From: Gemmatimonadota bacterium
GTDB lineage: Bacteria; Gemmatimonadota; Gemmatimonadetes; Gemmatimonadales; GWC2-71-9
Reading direction: 5' to 3'
Assembly: GCA_039591655.1 (NCBI GenBank)
Contig: JBDHDE010000076.1
Span: 1-10,100, forward strand
DNA: 10,100 bases
Part shown: positions 544 through 10,100 of the stretch, in pieces
How positions within the stretch are numbered: the stretch's first letter is position 1
Layout of the letters: the number at the start of each line of letters is the position of its first letter
The notes under the pieces: generated by a model
Told to the model about the DNA's origin: nothing
What the model saw: only the letters and a program-made list of their open reading frames with translations
The model's database searches: none
Made by a program: the position numbers and the translations under genes

Positions 544-1092
544 CTAGAACTCGACCGTCGGCACCTCCCGTGCGCCCTCCTCGGCCTCGAAGTACTCCTG
601 GGGCCCGGCCCCTATCGCCTTGGCTGTGAGCACCTGGGGGAACCGCCGAATGTAGGCGTTGTACTCCCGCACGGCGTTGTTGTAGTCCTGCCGGGCGACG
701 GAGATGCGGTTCTCGGTGCCCTCCAGCTGGTCCTGGAGCATCCGGAAGTTCTCGTTTGACTGGATCTCCGGATTGTCCTCCGCCAGGGCGATGAGCCGGC
801 CGAGTGCCGACGTGAGGGTCTGGTTCGCCGCGGCCATCGCGGCCAGGTCGCCGCCCTCCACGGCCCCACCGAGTGCTGCCCGCGCCGACGTGACCTCTTC
901 GAAGATCGCCAGCTCCTGCTGGGCGAATCCCTTCACGGTGTTCACCAGGTTGGGCACCAGGTCGGCGCGCCGCTGCAGTACCACTTCGATCTGCGCCTTG
1001 TAGCCCTCGGTCTCTTCGTCGAGCGTCTGGATGCGGTTGTAGCCGCACCCCGTAAGGGCGGCCGCACAGATCAATACGAGTACACGCTTCAT
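544..1092 (-). CDS. lemA: LemA family protein (predicted lipoprotein)
   Basis: Lipobox LTGC followed by GYN. LemA motifs 'QRRADLVPNLVNTVKGFA', 'P....NENF..LQDQLEGTENRISVARQDYN.AV..YN..IR.FP' and 'VPTVEF'. SD GGGAG lies 8 nt before the ATG at 1092. Confidence 0.95.
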   Translation of the reverse strand: MKRVLVLICAAALTGCGYNRIQTLDEETEGYKAQIEVVLQRRADLVPNLVNTVKGFAQQELAIFEEVTSARAALGGAVEGGDLAAMAAANQTLTSALGRLIALAEDNPEIQSNENFRMLQDQLEGTENRISVARQDYNNAVREYNAYIRRFPQVLTAKAIGAGPQEYFEAEEGAREVPTVEF

Positions 1093-1106
1093 TTCATGGT
1101 CTCCCG

Positions 1107-1850
1107 CTACTTTGCGCTCGCGGCGCGGGTGGGCTCGAAGGCGTCGACGAATCGAACCAGCCGCTCCAGCTGCTCTACGTAGCGATCCCCGACGGGGTCG
1201 TAGGGACGGAGCGGCTGCACGTTGTGGCCGACGATCCTGTCCAGCACCCAGTCGAATGCCGTGGCATCCAGGCCCGCCACTTCGGCCACCTCGTGGACCA
1301 GGGCCTTCGGTGTCTGGGGTGGCTCGCGATCCGCGAGGCGGAGCGCGGCCCGGAACAGCACGAAGAAGGTGCCTGCGGAGTCCAGCAACAGCTCGCCCAG
1401 CGCCTTACCGTTGGGGGCTGCCGCCACGAACTCGGTGCGCAACCGCAGGAGCTTGCCCCGAATCTCCCGCTCCAGCTCACGGCGCAGGTCCTCCTTGGTC
1501 GTCGGCACCCAGCCGAAGGGGTCGCGACCCCTGACCAGCAGGTGCGCCTCCCGCATGTCCTGGATCTCGATGGGGAAGACGTCGGCGGAGCCCCGCCAGC
1601 CGTCCTCGGCGAAGATGAGCGGCGGTGGATTGCCCCGCTTGGTCCATGCGGCGATGGCGGCCTCGATGGGTCGCAGCGCCGCCGGTGCTGCGTCGCGTAC
1701 GATGAGCAGGGTGGTGGCCTCCCGATCCTCCTCACGGGTGTCGTGCCGCACCGCCGGCCCGTAGAGGCAGAACGCCACCAGGTTCTCGCCCAGCGCCTGC
1801 TCCAGCTGAGCACCGAGCTCGTCCACGATCAGTTTGATGTTCCTAGCCAT
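1107..1850 (-). CDS. Nucleotidyltransferase-fold protein (LemA/TPM-associated type) with degenerate catalytic motif, 247 aa
   Basis: The real start is most likely the ATG at 1850 (MARNIKLIVDEL...), overlapping the TPM stop as TAATG. The longer ORF-track start at 1988 only reads the Gly repeat out of frame. 'LGENLVAFCLYG' matches the pol-beta-like NTase first strand. It also has 'DVFPIEI.D' and 'LRRELEREIRGKLLRLR'. Confidence 0.75.
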   Translation of the reverse strand: MARNIKLIVDELGAQLEQALGENLVAFCLYGPAVRHDTREEDREATTLLIVRDAAPAALRPIEAAIAAWTKRGNPPPLIFAEDGWRGSADVFPIEIQDMREAHLLVRGRDPFGWVPTTKEDLRRELEREIRGKLLRLRTEFVAAAPNGKALGELLLDSAGTFFVLFRAALRLADREPPQTPKALVHEVAEVAGLDATAFDWVLDRIVGHNVQPLRPYDPVGDRYVEQLERLVRFVDAFEPTRAASAK

Positions 1851-2653
1851 TAGAAGCTCCCTCCAGCGCCGCCGCCGCCGAAGCCTCCGCCGCCGCCGAA
1901 ACCACCGAAGCCGCCGCCGCCGAAACCGCCGCCGCCCCAGCTGCCGCCGCCGCGTCCGCCACCCAACAGCATGCCCAGGAGAATCCACTTGGCCGAGCTG
2001 CTCCGGCCCAGGTAGCCGCGGCGGTGTCCATGGGCAGCCATGCCAAACACGGCCGGTAGGACGAAGACGAACAGTATCAGCAAGACGAGCAAGCCGACAA
2101 TACCGGGTCCGGTGGACTCCTCTTGCTGCGGTGCCCGGGCCGGCCGCTCACCGGTGAGCTCGAACCCGAACTCCTCCGCGTAGGCATCTGCCAGGAGCCA
2201 TACGCCGACCTCCAGCCCGGCGGCGTAGCTGCGGGAGTCCACCGCGGCGCGACCGATCCGATCACGAATGCGCCCCGCACGGGCGTCGGTGATGAACCCC
2301 TCGGCACCGGTGCCCGGTGCGATGAAGAGGTCGGCCTGGCCGTCGCCTGGCCGAGCGCCCGGTTTGAGCAGCAGGACGACGCCGGCGTTTCGCGCCCGGT
2401 CTCCCGGCCCCCCCCGGGCGCCGACGCCCCACTGCCGTCCGATCTCCACAGCTACCTGTACCGGTGCCCGGCCACCCAAGTCCCGCAGCGTGACGACGGC
2501 AATCTCGCCGCCGCACTTGGCGCGCACCTCCTCGATGACCGCAGTCATCCTGCGCTCGGTGTCGCTGCCGATGACGCCGGCGAAGTCGTTGACGAAGCCC
2601 ACGGGATCGGGGATCTGCAGCTGCAGGGCGATGGCGAGGAAGATGGCGATCAT
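1850..2653 (-). CDS. TPM domain (YgcG/TLP18.3/Psb32/MOLO-1) membrane protein with Gly-rich tail
   Basis: Motifs 'P.P.GFVNDFAGVI', 'EIAVVT', 'WGVG...NAGVVLLL' and 'G.GAEGFITDA.AGRI'. TM helix IVGLLVLLILFVFVLPAVF. C-terminus 'GGGGFGGFGGGGGFGGGGAGGSF'. The LemA neighbourhood is typical. Confidence 0.93.
   Translation of the reverse strand: MIAIFLAIALQLQIPDPVGFVNDFAGVIGSDTERRMTAVIEEVRAKCGGEIAVVTLRDLGGRAPVQVAVEIGRQWGVGARGGPGDRARNAGVVLLLKPGARPGDGQADLFIAPGTGAEGFITDARAGRIRDRIGRAAVDSRSYAAGLEVGVWLLADAYAEEFGFELTGERPARAPQQEESTGPGIVGLLVLLILFVFVLPAVFGMAAHGHRRGYLGRSSSAKWILLGMLLGGGRGGGSWGGGGFGGGGFGGFGGGGGFGGGGAGGSF
1853..1963 (-). repeat. Low-complexity (GGC)n / GGGGF-coding repeat within the TPM gene
   Basis: Repeated ccgccgccgaa units on the + strand encode the Gly/Phe tail. 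Confidence 0.85.
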
Positions 2654-2664
2654 GCTCGCTTAGA

Positions 2665-3639
2665 CTACATGCCGCGCAGCAGTACCCGCAACTGCCCCGG
2701 CGGGCCGCGCTGGTCCAGGCGGGTGAGCCCGGCCTCGCGGGCGATCTGCCCCGCTGCGGCGAACTCCTCGGCGTAGAGCGCGCGATTGATCTCGGCGTAG
2801 CGGTTGCGGCCCACCTTCCCCGCGGGGCGGTACTGATCCATCAGGTTGACGTAGGTGTTGGGGCTCAGCTCCCTGGCGATCCACTGGAGGATCGCCCGCG
2901 TCTCGTCCAGTTGGCCGGGCATGACCAGATGACGCAGCAGGATCCCCCGGCGGGCGAGCCCGTTTGAGTCGATCACGAGATTTCCCACCTGCCGGTGCAT
3001 TTCCCCGAGCGCGGCCCGGGCGGCCTCAGGGTAGTTCTCCGCCTTGAGATAGGTGCGGCTGCGCTCCACCGACCAGTACTTGAAGTCGGGCATGTAGATG
3101 TCCACCACACCGTCCAGCAAGGCGAGACTCTCGAGAGAGTCGTACGCGCTGGTGTTGTACACGATGGGCAGGGTCAGCCCCTGCTCCACGGCCACGGCGA
3201 GCGCCTCCAGCACCTGGGGCACTACGTGCTCGGGCGTGACGAAGTTGATGTTGTGGCACCCCGCCTGTTGCAGCGCGAGCATCGTCGCGGCGATCTCCTC
3301 TGGTGGCGAGCCGGGCTCGGCCGGACCCGGGCGGACCGCCTGGCTGATGTCGAAGTTCTGGCAGAAGACGCAGCGCAGGTTGCAGTGGGAGAAGAAGATC
3401 GTGCCGGAGCCGTTCCAGCCCCGCAGGCAGTCTTCCTCACCGAAGTGCGCGAAGGCGGAGCTCACCACCGCGTAGCGGCCGGTCTTGCAGGCGGCCCAGC
3501 GGTTCTCCAGGCGATTCACCGCGCAGTCGCGGGGGCAGGCGCGGCACTCGGCAAGCGAGGAGACCGCGCGCTGGGCACGGGCCGCCAGTTCACCCTGCGG
3601 AAGAGCGAGATACGCCGCCCGAAAGCCGTCGTGGGGCAT
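2665..3639 (-). CDS. Radical SAM Fe-S protein, PflX-like (COG1313, often annotated as pyruvate formate-lyase activating enzyme-like)
   Basis: CxxxCxxC motif in 'GSGTIFFSHCNLRCVFCQN'. N-terminal 'CRACPRDC...NR' and 'HFGEE.CL.G'. Further motifs 'GCHNINFVTPEHV', 'PIVYNTS.YD', 'VDIYMPDFKY', 'RHLVMPG' and 'N.MDQYRP'. SD GGAG lies 7 nt before the ATG. Confidence 0.92.
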   Translation of the reverse strand: MPHDGFRAAYLALPQGELAARAQRAVSSLAECRACPRDCAVNRLENRWAACKTGRYAVVSSAFAHFGEEDCLRGWNGSGTIFFSHCNLRCVFCQNFDISQAVRPGPAEPGSPPEEIAATMLALQQAGCHNINFVTPEHVVPQVLEALAVAVEQGLTLPIVYNTSAYDSLESLALLDGVVDIYMPDFKYWSVERSRTYLKAENYPEAARAALGEMHRQVGNLVIDSNGLARRGILLRHLVMPGQLDETRAILQWIARELSPNTYVNLMDQYRPAGKVGRNRYAEINRALYAEEFAAAGQIAREAGLTRLDQRGPPGQLRVLLRGM

Positions 3640-3682
3640 GAGTGCGCTCCGGAGCGGGATGGCCGCTCCAGGTATGATACCG
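3640..3682 (-). promoter_or_regulatory. Candidate internal promoter/operator and RBS-proximal hairpin upstream of the radical SAM gene
   Basis: Palindrome GGTAT-G-ATACC at 3671-3681 contains -10-like TATCAT (minus) and TATGAT (plus). The hairpin GGAGCGG-N5-CCGCTCC (3651-3669) lies just upstream of the SD. No -35 element is recognisable. Confidence 0.3.
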
Positions 3683-4735
3683 CTAGCGGCCCTCGGTTCG
3701 CTGCGGCTCCCCGGCCCGGATCACGAATCGGGACACCCCGCGCCGTCGCTGGTTCTCCTGCTCCACGCGGGCGGCCTCCTCCTGCCACGCGGTGCGCAGC
3801 GAGTCGTTGTGGGCGACGTTCTCCGGGATCGCGGTCGAGGGCCTCTGCAGCACGAAGCCGACCAGTCCTGCCAACGTCACGACGCCACCCACCACGATGC
3901 GCACGTCGCGATTGTCGCTGTCGCTGTCGAGCGCCGGTAGGATGAGAGCGGCCCCCATGACGGCGCTGGGCAGCAGGATCTTGAGGCTCCCTCCCGCAGA
4001 GCGCGCCTCCGGGAGGAACAGGGAATCCGGCGGGTGCGCCGGCGCCGAGAGGGTACGCAATGGCGCCGCTCGCCAGTCGATGGGCACCTGGACCGATCGA
4101 ATGGGGGTGCCGGGAGTCACCATCGACACCGCCTCGAGTCGGTACCGGCCCGCGGGGGGTGCGGCGCCGTTGGCGCCGATCCCGTCCCATGAGATCACGA
4201 GGCTATCGGCGATCGGCGCGTCGTGCAGCGTGCGGACCAGATCGCCTCCTGCACTGCGGATCGCGACCGTAACGTGGTGGCTCGAGGAGACCCACAGCCG
4301 GATCTGCCAGCGCTCGGAGCCCGCTACCATTGTCTGTTCCCGCGGCGACTCGACGGCGACGACCTTGGTGGTTCTGAGCACCTCGTCGAACGTGCGGGTC
4401 ACCCGCGGCGGGAACACCAACCGGTCCGGCCGGTACCGGGGGTCGAGCAGGGTCAGGGTGCGGAACACCTCGATCCCCTCATTCCTTCGGTCACGGAGCA
4501 CCTCGGTGGCGCCGAGATACATCAGGGCCTGTTGGCGCTGGGCGAGGGTGAGGGGAGGTTCGCCACCCGGTTCCAGGGCGCGACGCAGAATCCGAGCAGC
4601 AACGCCGAACTCCAGGTCCTGGTAGGCGCTGACGCCCTCGTCCAGGAGGGCGCTAGGGGTCTGCGCCGGTGCCGCCGTCGGCAGCATCAGGAGGCACGCG
4701 ACCGCGAAGAGGATTCCTAGTCGACCTTGGATCAC
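3683..4735 (-). CDS. Exported protein: signal peptide + TPR-like helices + FlgD-like Ig domain + hydrophobic hairpin (paralog of 6819-7880)
   Basis: The GTG start overlaps the kinase stop (GTGA, 4732-4735). Signal peptide ends APA|Q. TPR-like 'G...Y...EF..A...L.RAL' and 'AL.YLGA'. FlgD-Ig-like 'G.LVRTL...WDG...G...PAGRY.L'. Two hydrophobic segments lie near the C-terminus. Confidence 0.8.
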   Translation of the reverse strand: MIQGRLGILFAVACLLMLPTAAPAQTPSALLDEGVSAYQDLEFGVAARILRRALEPGGEPPLTLAQRQQALMYLGATEVLRDRRNEGIEVFRTLTLLDPRYRPDRLVFPPRVTRTFDEVLRTTKVVAVESPREQTMVAGSERWQIRLWVSSSHHVTVAIRSAGGDLVRTLHDAPIADSLVISWDGIGANGAAPPAGRYRLEAVSMVTPGTPIRSVQVPIDWRAAPLRTLSAPAHPPDSLFLPEARSAGGSLKILLPSAVMGAALILPALDSDSDNRDVRIVVGGVVTLAGLVGFVLQRPSTAIPENVAHNDSLRTAWQEEAARVEQENQRRRGVSRFVIRAGEPQRTEGR

Positions 4736-6141
4736 TGCGAGTCCCTGGCTTGTTGCTCGAGCTCGATGTTCGTCAGCCGTGTCTCTGCTCCGGGTGCGAC
4801 CTCGACCTCCTCCTCCCAGGGTAGGAACCCCTCTTGGACGATGCGGACGAGATGCCGGCCGGGTTGTACGGCGAGTCCCGCCTGGGGGGTCTCGCCTACG
4901 AGGCTATCGTTCAGGTAAACGTAACCCCAAGGGTTGGAGCTGACGAATAACAGCCCGGGCGTGGCCGGGACGGTAGTCGCGGCGGGATCGGCGGTGGCCG
5001 AGGACGGGGCGGCGCTGGGGCGAGTGATCCAGGTGATCCCCACGAGGCTGGCCATGACAACTGTTGTGGCACCGAGGGCGGCCCAGCGGCGCCATGGGCT
5101 CATGCCGCTGCCCTCTACCAGCTCCGTGGGCGCGCTGGCAACGGTGTCGCGGAGGTCCAGGTTCGTGGTGGTCACGAAAGCGGGGGTCGGACGCAGCCCC
5201 GTGCCTCCCAGCGTCTGCACGAACTCCAGGACGCTGTGGAACCGGTCGCCGGCGTGCTTGCTGAGCGCCCGGTTCAGAGCGTCGCCAACGGTGGGCGGCA
5301 GGTCGGAGCGGCGCTCGCCCACGGGGGGCGGCAACTCCAAGCAGTGCTTCCGCACGATCTCGCCCAGCGACTCCCCATAGAACGGAGGGGCGCCGAGCAG
5401 ACACTCGTAGGTGAGGATGGCTAGGGAGTACTGGTCCGAGCGGCCGTCCAGCGCCTGCCCGTAACACTGCTCCGTGGACATGTACGCCGGGGTGCCCAGA
5501 GTGCCGCCCGACTGGGTCAGGGGCACCGACCCGAATGCCTTGGCGATGCCGAAGTCGCAGACCGTCACCCAGCCCACCTCGTCGATGAGCACGTTCTCCG
5601 GCTTCACGTCGCGGTGCACGATGCCGCGCCGATGGGCGTGATCCAGCGCCCCGGCCACCGGCTCGATGATCTGCACCACGTCTTCCAGGCTCATGGGGCC
5701 GGTCTCGCACAGGACGTCCCGCAGCGAGCGCCCCTGCACGTACTTCATCGAGTACCACAGGAAGGTGCGGGTGGCGCCCACCCGATAGATCGGAACGATG
5801 TGGGGGTGGTCCAGCGACGCGGCGATCTTGGCCTCGCGCTTGAACCGGTCCACGGCATCGGGCCCCATGGTGAGCTGCAGCGGCAGGACCTTGATCGCCA
5901 CGGGACGATTGAGCTCCCGCTCCCGAGCCAGGTACACGATGGACATGCCGCCCCGGCCGAGCTCGCGCTCGACCTTGAAATCCTGCTCCAGCTCCTCCCG
6001 GATGCTGGCTTCCATGAGCGGCGAGAAGAGGTCTTCGCCCACTGCGATGGCAGTGATCGCTTCGCCGCACATCGGGCACGAGACCGTGTCCGGGTTGAGG
6101 CCTTTGCCGCATTTCGGGCAGAACGTCCAGGGCGTTGGCAT
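4732..6141 (-). CDS. Hanks-type Ser/Thr protein kinase with N-terminal zinc ribbon, single TM helix and C-terminal PEGA domain (kinase #2)
   Basis: CPKC-x10-CPMC at the N-terminus. Kinase motifs GRGGMSIVY, VAIK, HRDVKPEN, DFG, GTPAYMSTEQ and SDQYSL. TM WAALGATTVVMASLVGITWI. PEGA 'G.L.VSSNPWGYVYLND..VGETP....V.PGRH.VRI...GF.PWE..V.V.PG'. Confidence 0.95.
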   Translation of the reverse strand: MPTPWTFCPKCGKGLNPDTVSCPMCGEAITAIAVGEDLFSPLMEASIREELEQDFKVERELGRGGMSIVYLARERELNRPVAIKVLPLQLTMGPDAVDRFKREAKIAASLDHPHIVPIYRVGATRTFLWYSMKYVQGRSLRDVLCETGPMSLEDVVQIIEPVAGALDHAHRRGIVHRDVKPENVLIDEVGWVTVCDFGIAKAFGSVPLTQSGGTLGTPAYMSTEQCYGQALDGRSDQYSLAILTYECLLGAPPFYGESLGEIVRKHCLELPPPVGERRSDLPPTVGDALNRALSKHAGDRFHSVLEFVQTLGGTGLRPTPAFVTTTNLDLRDTVASAPTELVEGSGMSPWRRWAALGATTVVMASLVGITWITRPSAAPSSATADPAATTVPATPGLLFVSSNPWGYVYLNDSLVGETPQAGLAVQPGRHLVRIVQEGFLPWEEEVEVAPGAETRLTNIELEQQARDSQ

Positions 6142-6162
6142 CTCAGGCAGCCATCCTATCCG

Positions 6163-6822
6163 CTACCATGCTCTACCGAGTCCGAGGCTCACCATGAGTC
6201 CGTCGGTCACCTCGCGGCGGGCCCCATCACCCAACCGGTACAACTCGATGCGATAGCCGAGCTTGATCCACAGGGGCGGCCGTGGCAGCGCCACCACCAT
6301 TCCCACGTCGGCGCCCTCTCCGTAGTCCCAGTCCTCCTCGACATTGACGTCGTGGGCGACGACGCCCCACACCTCCGCGTACCCCTTTGCCAGGTCGGGG
6401 ATGATGAAGGCCTGCCCCCGGACCATGACCTCCCACAGCCTCCAGCGCTGGGTGCCGATGGAGGTCACGTAGGAGCGCAGGTGGGGCCCCGTGCCGACGC
6501 TGAGCCAACTTGTGGGGCGCACTGCCAGCATCAGTCGCAGGTCGGCGGATTCCCGCGTGAGCGTGCTGACCGTCGAGGGGTCCAGGTTGGCCTGGAGGTA
6601 ACGGACCTCGAGGCCCAGACGCCAAACGTCGGCCACGCCCTCGAACCCGATCATCGGCGCGCTCAACTCCTCGCTCCCACCCGGGAAGGTGCTGCTCACG
6701 TGCCATTGGCCGCTCGTCGCACCGAGAGCGAACCGCAGGGGGAGCTGCCCGGCGAGACCCGCCGGGAGGGCCAGCGCGAGCACCGCGGCCGCCACGCAGA
6801 CCAATCGGGCGCGCCGCTTCAT
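6163..6822 (-). CDS. Putative outer-membrane beta-barrel protein, 219 aa
   Basis: The probable start ATG at 6822 overlaps the upstream stop (ATGA, 6819-6822). Signal peptide MKRRARLVCVAAAVLALALPAGLAG|Q. Many amphipathic strands (LGLEVRYLQA, ADLRLMLAVRP, WLSVGTG, ADVGMVVAL, WIKLGYRIELY). The terminal strand GLMVSLGLGRAW ends in an aromatic residue. Confidence 0.72.
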   Translation of the reverse strand: MKRRARLVCVAAAVLALALPAGLAGQLPLRFALGATSGQWHVSSTFPGGSEELSAPMIGFEGVADVWRLGLEVRYLQANLDPSTVSTLTRESADLRLMLAVRPTSWLSVGTGPHLRSYVTSIGTQRWRLWEVMVRGQAFIIPDLAKGYAEVWGVVAHDVNVEEDWDYGEGADVGMVVALPRPPLWIKLGYRIELYRLGDGARREVTDGLMVSLGLGRAW

Positions 6823-7880
6823 GAACCCTCGTGCTCGATGCGCAACGGTGCGCCTGTTCGGATGTGGAGGCGCACGTCCCGCAGGCGCTGCACGTTCTCG
6901 GCGAAGACCGAATCGCGGCGCGCCTGCCACTCGTACATCAGCACCTCGTTGGCCGCGATGTTGTCGGGCAGGGCGGCTCCTGGCGGCCGCATGACGAGAC
7001 CGATGATCCCCCCAATCGCGATGGCGCCTCCCACCGCGTACCGGCTGTTGGACGCCTCCTCAGAGCCGCCAACCAGTTGGGGTAGCCCCGCGGCCAAAGC
7101 CCCGAGGGCCAGCCCCAGACCCAGGGACTTGAGCCCCGGGCCGGCCGAACGCCGCTCCGGGAGGAGCAGAGAGTCGGCGGGCGGCGGTGGATAGGTGAGT
7201 GAGTCCTGGCGGGCGAGCTCCACGTCCAGCGGCAGCTGCAGGGTGCGCAGCACCACCCCGTCCGGGGCGAGCGAAGAGACGCTCAGATAGTAGAGACCCG
7301 AGGGAGCCGGGTTGCCCTCGGTGTCGAAGCCATCCCACCGCAGGGAGAGGCTGTCGCCAATGTCCCCCCCGTAGAGCCGCCGCAGCATCGTGCCGTCCTC
7401 TCGCGCGATGAGGGAGCTGATGCTGTGGTACGAGCTGGCGTACAGCTGGACGGCGAACGTCTCCTCCTCGTGCAGCCGGATGGTCGTGTCGGGGGGCGCC
7501 GCGGTGCCGATCACCTTGAGACTCCGCCGCACGCCGTCGTACACGCGCACTACCGGTGGGGGGAAGACCAGCGGGTCCGGCCGGTAGCGGGGGTTGAGCA
7601 AGACCATCTGGCGGAAGGCGGCGATGGCCGAGTCGCTCCGCCCGCGGTAATGCTCGGCCGCGCCCAGGTAGCCCAGGGCGGTGGCCCGCTCGGCCTCCGA
7701 GAGCCCTTCCTCGGGAGAGGCCGCGAGGGCCCGTCTGATGAAGGCAACGGCCGCACCGAGCTCGAGATTGCCGTACGCCTCGATGCCGTACTGGAGTTGC
7801 TCCTGGGCGGATTGGGCAGCGGCGCTCGGGGGCAGGACCGCCGCAACGAGCAGCGCGACCGCCGGGAAAGCCCGCCGCAT
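6819..7880 (-). CDS. Exported protein: signal peptide + TPR-like helices + FlgD-like Ig domain + Gly-rich hydrophobic hairpin, 353 aa (paralog of 3683-4735)
   Basis: The probable start ATG at 7880 lies 1 nt after the kinase stop (TAG-C-ATG). Signal peptide MRRAFPAVALLVAAVLPPSAAA|Q. TPR-like 'ALGYLGAAEHYRGRSDSAIAAFRQ'. Ig-like 'LRWDGFDTEGNPAPSGLYYL'. Hairpin LGLGLALGALAAG ... VGGAIAIGGIIGLV. Confidence 0.82.
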   Translation of the reverse strand: MRRAFPAVALLVAAVLPPSAAAQSAQEQLQYGIEAYGNLELGAAVAFIRRALAASPEEGLSEAERATALGYLGAAEHYRGRSDSAIAAFRQMVLLNPRYRPDPLVFPPPVVRVYDGVRRSLKVIGTAAPPDTTIRLHEEETFAVQLYASSYHSISSLIAREDGTMLRRLYGGDIGDSLSLRWDGFDTEGNPAPSGLYYLSVSSLAPDGVVLRTLQLPLDVELARQDSLTYPPPPADSLLLPERRSAGPGLKSLGLGLALGALAAGLPQLVGGSEEASNSRYAVGGAIAIGGIIGLVMRPPGAALPDNIAANEVLMYEWQARRDSVFAENVQRLRDVRLHIRTGAPLRIEHEGS

Positions 7881-7881
7881 G

Positions 7882-9441
7882 CTACGGCTTGATTTCGATG
7901 AGGACGATTCCGGTGAGGCGCACCGTCTCACCGGGTGAGACGTTGATGATCTGCTCGAAGGGCTCGTAGAGATCCCGGGCAACACGGAGGGTGTGCCGGC
8001 CCGGTGGGATGGCCAGGTTCATGATGGGGGTCTCCTGGAGGATCTCGCCGTCCAGGTAGACATAGGCCCACGGATCCGCCTGGACCCAGAGACTGCCGGG
8101 CGCCTGGGACGCCTGTGTCTGGGGCGTACGCTGTACGGTCTGGGCCGGCGGCGGCGTGGGCTCGGGTTGCCGTACCGGCGTCTCGGCGGGGGTCGCCGGC
8201 TGATTCTGGTCGGTCTCCCCGGCCGGCGCGCTGGGTGCGCTGTCCTGCTGCTGGCCGGCCTCGGTCGGCGGGAGCGATTCGGCCAAGGCCGCGTTCCTGA
8301 GCCGCTGCGCCGCGTTGGCGATCTCGGGCGCCACCGACTCTGGGAAGGGCCACATGACGGCTCCGGCAATCAGGGCGGGCACCGCCACCGCTGCCACGAT
8401 GCGCATGCGGGGCCGCCGCCAGCGCCGGATGCGCCGTGCTGTGACGATCGGCTGCGGCGTCGCCGCCATCATCTGCTGGAGCGAAGCGTTGGGCATCTGG
8501 AGCGACACCCGCCCGCCCAGCGCCTCCACGAACTCGACGATGTCAGGGAACCGGTCGTCGGGCGTCTTGCTCATGCCCCGGAGCACCGTGTTCGAGACCC
8601 GCGGTGGCAGGTCGGGCCGCAGGTCCGCGAGCGCCGGCGGCGGCTCGAGACAGTGCTTCCGGATCATCATCCCCAGCGAGTCGGTCACGAACGGCGTCTC
8701 GCCGGCCAGGCAGCGGTACGCCAGGACGGCCAGGGAATACTGATCGGATCGGGGATCCAGGGCCTGGCCGTAGCACTGCTCCGGCGACATGTAGCTCGGC
8801 GTGCCCAGCGTGGTGCCGGTGTCGGTCAGCGGCAGCGTGCCGAACGCCTTGGCGACCCCGAAGTCGCACACCCACACCCAGCCCTCGCCGTCGACCAGCA
8901 CGTTCTCCGGCTTGATGTCGCGATGGATCACACCGCGGCGGTGCGCGTAGTTGAGGGCGCCCGCCGTCTGGCCGATGATGTCGATGCACACGTCCAAATC
9001 CATGGGGCCCATCTCGCCGAGCATTTCGGCCAATGAGCGCCCCTTGACGTACTTCATCGTGTACCAGAGGAAGCTGGACGTGGTCCCGACACGGTGGATT
9101 GGGACGATGTGGTGATGCTCGAGGGAGGCGGCGATCTTGGCCTCCCGCTTGAAGCGCTCGACCGCCGCACTGCCGAGGACGAGCTGGAGCGGGAGGATCT
9201 TGAGAGCTATCTGGCGGTTGAGATCCCGCTCCCGGGCGAGGTAGACGAGGGACATCCCGCCCCGGCCGAGGAGTCCCTCCATCTGGAAATCCTGGCCGAG
9301 GTGCTTGCGGACGTTCTGCTCGACTTCTTCCGCCGCCGGGAGATCGAGCGTTTCCCGCTCGGAGACTTCCACCCTGCAGGTATCGCAGAGCAGGTCATCG
9401 CCAGCGGTAGTCTCTCCGGTGCGGCAGCGAGTACAGATCAT
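7882..9441 (-). CDS. Hanks-type Ser/Thr protein kinase with N-terminal Cys4 zinc finger, TM helix, long P/Q/T/A linker and C-terminal PEGA domain (kinase #1)
   Basis: CTRC-x12-CDTC at the N-terminus. Kinase motifs GRGGMSLVY, IALK, HRDIKPEN, DFG, GTPSYMSPEQ and SDQYSL. An Arg-rich stretch precedes TM IVAAVAVPALIAGAVMW. PEGA 'GSL.V.ADPWAYVYLDG...ETP.....PPGRHTLRV'. SD-like GAGAGGG upstream. Confidence 0.95.
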   Translation of the reverse strand: MICTRCRTGETTAGDDLLCDTCRVEVSERETLDLPAAEEVEQNVRKHLGQDFQMEGLLGRGGMSLVYLARERDLNRQIALKILPLQLVLGSAAVERFKREAKIAASLEHHHIVPIHRVGTTSSFLWYTMKYVKGRSLAEMLGEMGPMDLDVCIDIIGQTAGALNYAHRRGVIHRDIKPENVLVDGEGWVWVCDFGVAKAFGTLPLTDTGTTLGTPSYMSPEQCYGQALDPRSDQYSLAVLAYRCLAGETPFVTDSLGMMIRKHCLEPPPALADLRPDLPPRVSNTVLRGMSKTPDDRFPDIVEFVEALGGRVSLQMPNASLQQMMAATPQPIVTARRIRRWRRPRMRIVAAVAVPALIAGAVMWPFPESVAPEIANAAQRLRNAALAESLPPTEAGQQQDSAPSAPAGETDQNQPATPAETPVRQPEPTPPPAQTVQRTPQTQASQAPGSLWVQADPWAYVYLDGEILQETPIMNLAIPPGRHTLRVARDLYEPFEQIINVSPGETVRLTGIVLIEIKP

Positions 9442-9462
9442 CGCGCCCTCTCAAACACCCTC

Positions 9463-9490
9463 AAACTAGACCGCAACACCGGGTTGGGAA
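9463..9490 (-). promoter_or_regulatory. Weak sigma70-like promoter candidate for the kinase operon
   Basis: Minus-strand TTCCCA (9490-9485) - N16 - TAGTTT (9468-9463), 21 nt upstream of the kinase ATG, in a locally AT-richer patch. Confidence 0.25.
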
Positions 9491-9496
9491 ACATCA

Positions 9497-9528
9497 CCCC
9501 GACGTCGGCAAAACCGCCAACGACGGGG
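9497..9528 (-). terminator. GC-rich hairpin, possible terminator or attenuator downstream of the Ig/FN3-like gene
   Basis: Minus strand reads CCCCGTCGTTGGC-GGTTTT-GCCGACGTCGGGG (13 positions, one U-U mismatch, one G-U pair). It is followed by only a weak U-tract (TGATGTTT). Confidence 0.3.
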
Positions 9529-9712
9529 GGCCCCGAAAGGCTTCCGAAGATATCCCGGTGGGGAGGTGGGGACAAGGTCCACACTGTAGCGTGCTCCCCA
9601 GGTGAGGCAGTGCGGTGCGTCACCAAGCCCCTGGGCGTCCGGCAAAGGTACCGCCACTTGCGCGACAGTGCCACTTCTCCCCCCAAAGAACCGGCTGAGC
9701 GTGAGGCGGGCG

Positions 9713-10099
9713 TCATGGGACGTCCACGATGAAGTCGACGCCGGAAGTGCCGAACTCCACCCAATTGCTGGTGTTGCCGTCGAGGTCCTTCGCCCGGGCC
9801 CGCCAGTGGTACGAGCCGTCTGCCAGGCCGGTCCACACGACCTCGGCCTCCTGCCCAGTCGAAACGGGCAGGCTCTCTAGGGTGGGTGCTCCGTTGAACG
9901 CAGTACCGAACGGCTTGACCTCTACCTCCAGCACGATCTGGTCCCCTGGATCGGGATCCTCGACGGTCGCCTTGAGTGTCACCCGGTTCTCATCGGTAGT
10001 TGCGCCGGTATCGATCGGTGTGCTGCCGTCGCTCCTGAACTGACCGAGACTCAGCGGCTGGATGGTTGGGTCTTCCGGCACAGCAACGTGGAAGTCCGC
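9713..10099 (-). CDS. C-terminal part of a probable extracellular protein with an Ig/fibronectin-III-like beta-sandwich domain (5' truncated by window)
   Basis: The frame is open to the window edge (ADFHVAVPEDP...). The sequence is acidic and beta-rich, with 'ATVEDPDPGD' and the FN3-like 'TGLADGSYHWRARAKD.DGNTSNW'. Stop TGA at 9713-9715. Confidence 0.75.
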   Translation of the reverse strand, partial: ADFHVAVPEDPTIQPLSLGQFRSDGSTPIDTGATTDENRVTLKATVEDPDPGDQIVLEVEVKPFGTAFNGAPTLESLPVSTGQEAEVVWTGLADGSYHWRARAKDLDGNTSNWVEFGTSGVDFIVDVP

Positions 10100-10100
10100 C

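Follow-up and report, generated by a model that had tools for sequence, protein, structure and literature searches.

A lipoprotein, PEGA kinase, TPR adaptor and β-barrel gene unit of Gemmatimonadota as a candidate sensing bridge across the cell envelope

The stretch of DNA analysed here (the window, 10,100 nucleotides) is the complete contig C76 (JBDHDE010000076.1) from the genome of a Gemmatimonadota bacterium (GCA_039591655.1; 3.3 Mb, completeness 95%). It carries a gene unit in the order lipoprotein, kinase with transmembrane (TM) helix and PEGA domain, adaptor with TPR, immunoglobulin-like (Ig) and hairpin domains, and ten-stranded β-barrel, followed by a second kinase–adaptor pair. With modest confidence we favor a reading in which the four products form a bridge across the envelope and the intact kinases of the window report the state of the lipoprotein by phosphorylation. 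The genes, all on the minus strand, are listed in the order in which they are read.

9713..10100, minus strand, continuing past 10100: C-terminal Ig-like domain of the lipoprotein, the module's first gene, truncated where the contig stops
7882..9441, minus strand: K1, Zn ribbon/RD-type Hanks kinase/TM/linker/PEGA, 519 residues
7885..8115, minus strand: PEGA domain of K1 (residues 443-519), from the domain match and the complex model
6819..7880, minus strand: P1, adaptor with TPR, FlgD-like Ig domain and hairpin, 353 residues (Pfam and AlphaFold)
6163..6822, minus strand: barrel, predicted ten-stranded outer-membrane β-barrel of OpcA/omptin fold, 219 residues (AlphaFold)
4732..6141, minus strand: K2, Zn ribbon/RD-type Hanks kinase/TM/shorter linker/PEGA, 469 residues, of a barrel-less paralog clade
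3683..4735, minus strand: P2, adaptor paralogous to P1 but not followed by a barrel gene, 350 residues

The five co-oriented genes from K1 to P2, their domains and their four junctions are exactly as the initial annotation had them: the sequence reads as a 1-nt gap between K1 and P1 (7881), an ATGA overlap between P1 and the barrel (6819-6822), a 21-nt gap between the barrel and K2 (6142-6162) and a GTGA overlap between K2 and P2 (4732-4735). The common architecture that it had ascribed to both kinases and to both partners is borne out by identities of 44% (K1/K2) and 40% (P1/P2). The symmetric duplication flanking the barrel had to be abandoned for one complete four-gene unit followed by the barrel-less K2-P2 pair, and a sixth gene, that of an Ig-repeat lipoprotein, had been overlooked upstream. 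No sigma-70 promoter and no convincing terminator were found within 3500-10100.

Linkage across genomes and the components of the unit

The genome contains 90 open reading frames (ORFs) for Hanks kinases, five of them with a full PEGA match, and just two full adaptors. Since both adaptors sit behind PEGA kinases and both partners are rare, the arrangement is not a matter of chance. In the same genome, the ORF at C17:29765-31741 (minus strand) combines a Zn ribbon, a kinase and PEGA with a C-terminus that by eye resembles a TonB C-terminal domain. Linkage was scored in 121 loci, including the window, that hold 125 full-length and four partial adaptors. Apart from the window, 40 loci came from the 71 matches listed for related genomes and 80 from among the matches listed for genomes of the phylum, these being mostly full-length with a few partial ones and with unpublished genomes left out; all were selected by their adaptor match alone, and the other listed matches were not included. 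A PEGA ORF lies directly ahead of 116 of the 125 full-length adaptors, and in 106 of the 125 it also encodes a kinase; the barrel is the next gene after the adaptor in 107 of 125 (122 have enough sequence to show a barrel). The adjacency of PEGA kinase and partner that the initial annotation had proposed to score is thus the rule in this set. Four-nucleotide stop/start overlaps were counted at 83/116 PEGA-adaptor and 96/107 adaptor-barrel junctions when the start codon nearest the upstream stop was chosen.

Of 61 related genomes, 29 hold a match to P1; at E 0.001 the adaptor profile matches 166 of 251 genomes of the phylum, with three unpublished genomes included in the count. Outside the order the matches are mostly weak, and the full-length ones are concentrated in families f1 and f3, while f2 contributes a few and f5 a single one. 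Against protein representatives the profile yielded 568 matches at E 1e-30. The Atlas clusters of adaptor and barrel are unnamed and are commonest in Gemmatimonadota, and a scan of named genomes with P1 returned a single partial match, to the FlgD region, in a metagenome-assembled genome of Spirochaetia. A Myxococcota TPR family ranks 17th among the Atlas matches of P1 (score 0.84), a lead that the predicted PEGA-TPR clamp may reach beyond the phylum.

By their motifs K1 and K2 are Hanks-type Ser/Thr kinases, with predicted activity. They match Pkinase at E 3.7e-43 and 2.7e-43 and PEGA at E 1.5e-9 and 1.1e-10 (Pfam), and all 14 scored catalytic positions are intact in both (G-loop, VAIK Lys, alphaC Glu, HRDxKxxN, DFG, GT..Y). 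The Zn ribbon matches in K2 below the cut-off, and CxxC..CxxC is visible in both. The TM helix of K1, at about residues 349-367, is followed by a Pro/Ala/Gln-rich linker and by PEGA at the C-terminus; across loci the linker has a median length of 68 residues with 41% Pro+Ala. PASTA repeats were not found by Pfam in either kinase, where PEGA stands in their place, and the scores for NF033483 are 267-283, at a cut-off of 450.

The adaptors match FlgD_ig (E 1.7e-5 for P1, 7.9e-7 for P2); TPR matches by Pfam are weak and limited to P1. The AlphaFold model of P1 (pLDDT 92.2) consists of TPR (25-120), the FlgD-like Ig domain (124-223) and a Gly/Ala-rich helical hairpin (247-297), then a long helix (305-334) and two last C-terminal strands, behind a signal peptide read as AAA-Q23. 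Signal peptides and lipoboxes were assigned by eye or by regular expression, with no predictor. A flagellar role of the adaptor was rejected: the FlgD match is confined to the Ig domain and lies far under the NCBIfam cut-off.

The barrel matches no Pfam or NCBIfam family. Its AlphaFold model (ten strands, pLDDT 92.5) is nearest in fold to the adhesin OpcA (2vdf: Z 20.5, root-mean-square deviation 2.2, 182 residues aligned), followed by pOmpT (7xw0, listed for the omptins: Z 20.4, deviation 2.3, 187 aligned) and a Dot/Icm porin (Z 18.6). OpcA and the omptins share the ten strands and the long outward strands with the module barrel at 9-14% identity. On those strands (β5-β6) R116 and Q125-W127 are conserved and would, by strand order, point outward. 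The protease site of omptins is a catalytic Asp/His pair; no His is conserved in at least 50% of 93 barrel homologs, so that such a site is not evident, although it was not mapped by superposition. A pattern scan of viral contigs gave no relative of the barrel.

Clustering of neighboring genes across loci brought out a recurring co-oriented upstream gene, which falls into four families with Big_1, Big_2, Big_3_5, Invasin_D3, BACON, PPC or β-helix domains. The products range from about 115 to more than 2,600 residues and show a lipobox wherever the N-terminus is visible; in 79 loci the distance from this gene to the following module gene has a median of -1 nt. The lipoprotein end in the window shares 45-54% identity with C-terminal repeats of the lipoproteins that precede K1 in the same-genus loci L021 and L023. 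Contig C43 of the same genome ends in a matching lipoprotein N-terminus with lipobox LGTC, behind the same three neighbor genes as in sister genomes, and just nine ORFs of the genome, three of which belong to module loci, resemble the lipoprotein families. C43 and C76 have no sequence overlap in common; from these matches, the N-terminus of the window lipoprotein is most likely the end of C43. In the window 271 nt (9442-9712) separate the lipoprotein from K1, against the median of -1 nt in other loci, and no promoter or terminator match falls in this gap.

Lipoprotein and barrel occurred together in 89 of 108 scorable loci, the barrel alone in ten, neither in nine and the lipoprotein alone in none; ten singletons were assigned through Pfam hits or, in two cases, by eye. 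Hence the lipoprotein implies the barrel in 89/89 loci, and 9/9 barrel-less loci have no lipoprotein. As five of these nine are one clade, a Fisher value overstates the dependence.

Predicted PEGA docking and shared descent

Contact between the kinase and its partner, which the initial annotation had proposed to examine by AlphaFold, is predicted for K1 and P1. When P1, the barrel and the PEGA domain of K1 were folded together, from alignments built for this analysis, the complex score for PEGA was 0.70; the best of three controls gave 0.00, and the score was 0.00 when P1 was exchanged and the barrel left in place. Among solved complexes 116 of 157 attain the score mark, as do 2 of 215 mismatched pairs, a calibration that is only roughly applicable to three chains with such alignments. 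Agreement between runs was 100%, and the partner pLDDT was no lower than 87. The listed contacts all join PEGA to TPR, with P1 residues 37-39, 41, 78 and 104-109 facing K1 residues 452-458, 470-474 and 508-511; on the PEGA side W452, Q454, D456-W458, E470-P472, R508 and T510 are predicted to touch the TPR. The contact residues rank among the most conserved, differences between subfamilies are matched on both sides, and K1-P1 and K2-P2 have the same interface motifs. The model thus supports binding, with the PEGA domain of K1 predicted to dock on a conserved TPR motif of the adaptor. A sequence search returned no solved PEGA-TPR complex; the nearest was the N-terminal domain of a TonB-linked receptor (E 2e-4).

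An operon shared by proteins that form no single complex is very improbable. It would agree with a complex score that covers PEGA and TPR only and with the mutual-information analysis of 93 triplets, whose top pairs outlined no coherent patch for adaptor-PEGA or adaptor-barrel. Covariation was enriched at the predicted contacts (mean z 0.99 vs 0.01 +/- 0.20), a value that depends on the model input and is driven by subfamily differences. Arguing against separate proteins are the modeled interface, with its score well apart from the controls, and natural fusions of TPR with the barrel and of TPR, PEGA and barrel.

The trees of 80 triplets of adaptor, barrel and kinase/PEGA agree; the initial annotation had proposed such a comparison for kinase and partner. 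Of 42 adaptor splits, 40 do not conflict with the barrel tree, against 0.9 after shuffling, and the adaptor tree shares 23 of the 26 barrel splits that have support. Spearman's rho was 0.83 for adaptor-barrel, 0.56 for adaptor-PEGA, 0.54 for adaptor-kinase and 0.25 for PEGA-kinase; PEGA distances thus follow the adaptor more closely than they follow the kinase domain with which PEGA shares a chain. Much of this agreement can be explained by shared descent alone. There are three paralog subfamilies (A, B and C), each with its own type of lipoprotein. Both pairs of the window belong to A, and the same genome also holds a subfamily-C module, split between contigs C34 and C146.

K1 and K2 fall into separate, well-supported clades whose mutual relation has a support of 0.25-0.28, and the K2 clade, which extends to another genus, lacks a barrel of its own throughout. 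On these grounds a symmetric recent tandem duplication was rejected; by its placement, K2-P2 is an old pair of paralogs without a barrel and does not mirror K1-P1. Five genomes of the genus have K2-P2 at the same site without the lipoprotein, K1, P1 and barrel. The pair probably serves as an additional read-out, using the barrel of K1-P1 here or doing without one. At L029:12294-13448 and L141:3307-4563, K2-type barrel-less pairs stand directly behind a different, porin-like protein ending in Phe. Behind P2 in the window follow a Radical SAM gene, a TPM-domain protein, an unassigned protein of 246 residues and LemA (544-3639, minus strand), a block found behind K2-P2 in most same-genus loci that looks like ordinary synteny.

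The Pro-rich, periplasm-spanning linker and the ability of K2-P2 to work without a lipoprotein would also suit a structural tether between inner and outer membrane that senses envelope stress, with a lipoprotein that is periplasmic or merely co-regulated. At L168:4208-8492 (minus strand) two proteins follow a kinase with two PEGA domains: in one the same TPR is joined to a TonB C-terminal domain, and the other is a TPR-PEGA-PEGA protein with a barrel-like end. The Hanks kinase PpkA is reported to respond to membrane damage (PMC13713981). We nevertheless regard a tether of this kind as unlikely: each subfamily keeps its own lipoprotein type, the lipoprotein gene is tightly joined to the next gene, and the module is patchy across the phylum, unlike a housekeeping tether.

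An optional kinase and the minimal core

HRD and DFG are intact in the kinases of 15/16 subfamily-B and 32/33 subfamily-C loci and in 19/50 of subfamily A. Locus L112 has a His kinase-TM-PEGA protein ahead of the adaptor; the tandem there (L112:2517-7763, plus strand) joins a degenerate Ser/Thr kinase-PEGA protein and the His kinase before one adaptor and barrel. L108 and L130 have TM-PEGA without a kinase. The proteins P0035-P0038 combine the adaptor TPR with a region of the barrel family (HH probability 99.7%), the two being connected by a Pro-rich linker. The fusion set comprises 81 loci, from one genome of the 301 searched and 80 metagenome loci, and 71 of the 81 encode TPR, linker and barrel in a single ORF. 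A PEGA ORF lies directly ahead of the fusion in 64 of these 71; five are too close to the contig start and two fall outside the distance rule. The interface motifs are kept in 69/71 and 77/79. By this lineage the minimal core of the module is lipoprotein, TM-PEGA, TPR and barrel. As the kinase is degenerate, absent or swapped for a His kinase elsewhere, it is an optional read-out, intact in the window copies. The kinase-less TM-PEGA genes (L171-L251) have an acidic motif, about LLDDxWE, in a short cytoplasmic tail, possibly a docking site; it was sought in K1 and K2 without success, and 4 of 113 scored proteins match.

The main rival follows from this core: a machine for the export, display or anchoring of the cognate Ig-repeat lipoprotein at the cell surface, in which TM-PEGA would tether the machine to the inner membrane or act as a hand-over arm, the intact kinase serving only for regulation. 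It is a possible, though less probable, account, and it is not exclusive with a sensing bridge. All parts except the kinase survive in the fusion lineage, the lipoprotein never occurs without the barrel, and its size varies as that of a variable cargo would. The combination of TPR and barrel beside cargo also recalls Slam and the type XI secretion system (T11SS; PMC8406197) and PorE-PorP-adhesin (PMC9143113). Arguing against a display machine are the strict retention of intact kinases in subfamilies B and C, the persistence of kinase-adaptor pairs in about five lineages without barrel or lipoprotein, and the barrel itself, which with ten strands is smaller than the 14-stranded T11SS barrel and unlikely to be a polypeptide conduit.

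Known systems, proposed mechanism and implications

The initial annotation knew of no characterized system of this composition, and the literature searched (paywalled papers and supplements lay outside the search) likewise contains no description of the module, and the comparisons placed it in none of the known systems. This distinction rests on composition; the logic of the module has analogues, and its functions are proposed only. The comparison with FecA/FecR/FecI made in the initial annotation holds for the relay logic from outer to inner membrane but is loose: Pfam found no TonB-dependent receptor, anti-sigma factor or extracytoplasmic function (ECF) sigma factor in the window, nor do they occur among the recurring neighbor clusters. 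PknB/Stk1 is likewise a single-pass kinase with an extracytoplasmic sensor, but the module kinases end in PEGA instead of PASTA.

Nearer in logic are TagQ/TagR/PpkA and PorE/PorP. TagQ/TagR/TagST-PpkA-Fha1 is the sensor module of the H1 type VI secretion system (T6SS) of Pseudomonas aeruginosa (PMC13713981), and TssW-PpkA-Fha is a comparable set in Acidovorax citrulli (PMC12607579). Both resemble the module in having a membrane lipoprotein, a periplasmic adaptor and an inner-membrane Hanks kinase; in PpkA the periplasmic domain is modeled to bind the adaptor, and activation is likely by dimerization. As far as these sources go, TagR is FGE-sulfatase-like whereas the module adaptor is TPR/FlgD-Ig/hairpin by Pfam and fold, and only in the module does the kinase end in PEGA, does a β-barrel belong to the block and can the kinase be lost. 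No ABC transporter, FHA protein or phosphatase recurs near the module, unlike the TagQ/TagR/TagST-PpkA-Fha1 set. VipB/TssC (PF05943) has no match in the genome, with a positive E. coli control, and no T6SS core genes are among the recurring neighbors.

In PorE-PorP-PG1035 and SprF-SprB of type IX secretion (T9SS) type B (PMC9143113), an outer-membrane barrel binds a surface adhesin on its outer side and a periplasmic protein on its inner side, much as proposed for the module barrel. The module differs in its ten-stranded OpcA/omptin-like barrel, in a cargo with a lipobox and apparently without the type B C-terminal domain, and in the attached inner-membrane PEGA protein or kinase. PorP_SprF (PF11751) matches neither the barrel nor the rest of the genome, but the control genomes were silent as well; for 45 upstream proteins, many of which are truncated at a contig end, no T9SS C-terminal domain family is among the top Pfam hits. 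A SprA_N match above the cut-off in the same genome (C37:44309-44668, in a frame of 1,574 residues) points to a T9SS-like translocon gene. Slam (DUF560; PMC8406197) shares the TPR and barrel beside a lipoprotein cargo, an arrangement fused in one module lineage, but has 14 strands and a TbpB-like cargo in place of ten strands and Ig repeats. SlipAM/DUF560 had no match for the barrel and none in the genome, and here, too, the controls were silent.

In the model that we propose, the TM-linker-PEGA arm most likely spans the periplasm and grips the TPR of the adaptor, which in turn would rest against the barrel, via the hairpin if the hairpin lies in the outer membrane; the TPR-barrel fusions and the congruent trees argue for this contact. 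The barrel may hold the lipoprotein by its long outward strands, as the one-way dependence of the lipoprotein on the barrel suggests, and the lipoprotein would then be surface-exposed. Hanks kinases in general are activated by clustering and trans-autophosphorylation, and clustering of the complex would activate the intact kinases in this way. The signal may, as a guess, be contact or load on the lipoprotein fiber. For the relay from barrel and partner through PEGA to the kinase, which the initial annotation had envisaged, the linkage, the congruent trees, the PEGA-TPR interface and the TPR-barrel fusions all speak; phosphorylation does not hold up as its defining output.

Several observations weigh against the bridge with a kinase output. 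In subfamily A, 31 of 50 loci have a degenerate kinase (a few rows are truncations), and kinase and Zn ribbon are absent from 66/66 TM-PEGA genes of the fusion lineage, where the upstream Ig gene is visible; related loci are not independent of one another, and the fusion loci are probably one lineage or event. Ten barrel loci have no co-oriented Ig lipoprotein upstream, and seven adaptors have no adjacent PEGA gene and follow the lipoprotein directly. Of the five PEGA kinases encoded in this genome, three are not followed by an adaptor, so that a PEGA kinase does not imply an adaptor, whereas an adaptor nearly implies a PEGA protein. Three same-genus genomes more than 90% complete keep K2-P2, and only a C-type barrel, no subfamily-A barrel, was found in them. 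No gene for a substrate, FHA protein or phosphatase recurs in the module neighborhoods. Finally, the adaptor hairpin may lie in the inner or in the outer membrane: 5% and 0% of its two helices exceed the inner-membrane threshold, vs 69% of the kinase TM helices, in a crude and weak test in which the TM helix of K1 itself scored 2.0.

In the one source found that links PEGA with kinases in multicellular bacteria (PMC7159879), PEGA figures only in other systems and as a presumed peptidoglycan-associating domain, with no test in the passages available; the predicted docking on a TPR motif would give it a concrete role at the level of residues. Tentatively, the module may represent a new system of display and sensing in which barrel and TPR adaptor put Ig-repeat lipoprotein fibers on the surface and a universal PEGA-TPR clamp connects them to interchangeable outputs. 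If this is true, the outputs would be a Ser/Thr kinase, a pseudokinase, a His kinase or none, and the PEGA domain of membrane kinases would be a general TPR-docking arm. The irreducible core is exposed by a natural series that begins with an intact kinase and runs through a pseudokinase and exchange for a His kinase to the loss of the kinase and the fusion of TPR and barrel. A kinase-rich and little-studied phylum may thus wire events at its outer surface to phosphorylation through a β-barrel, outside any T6SS.

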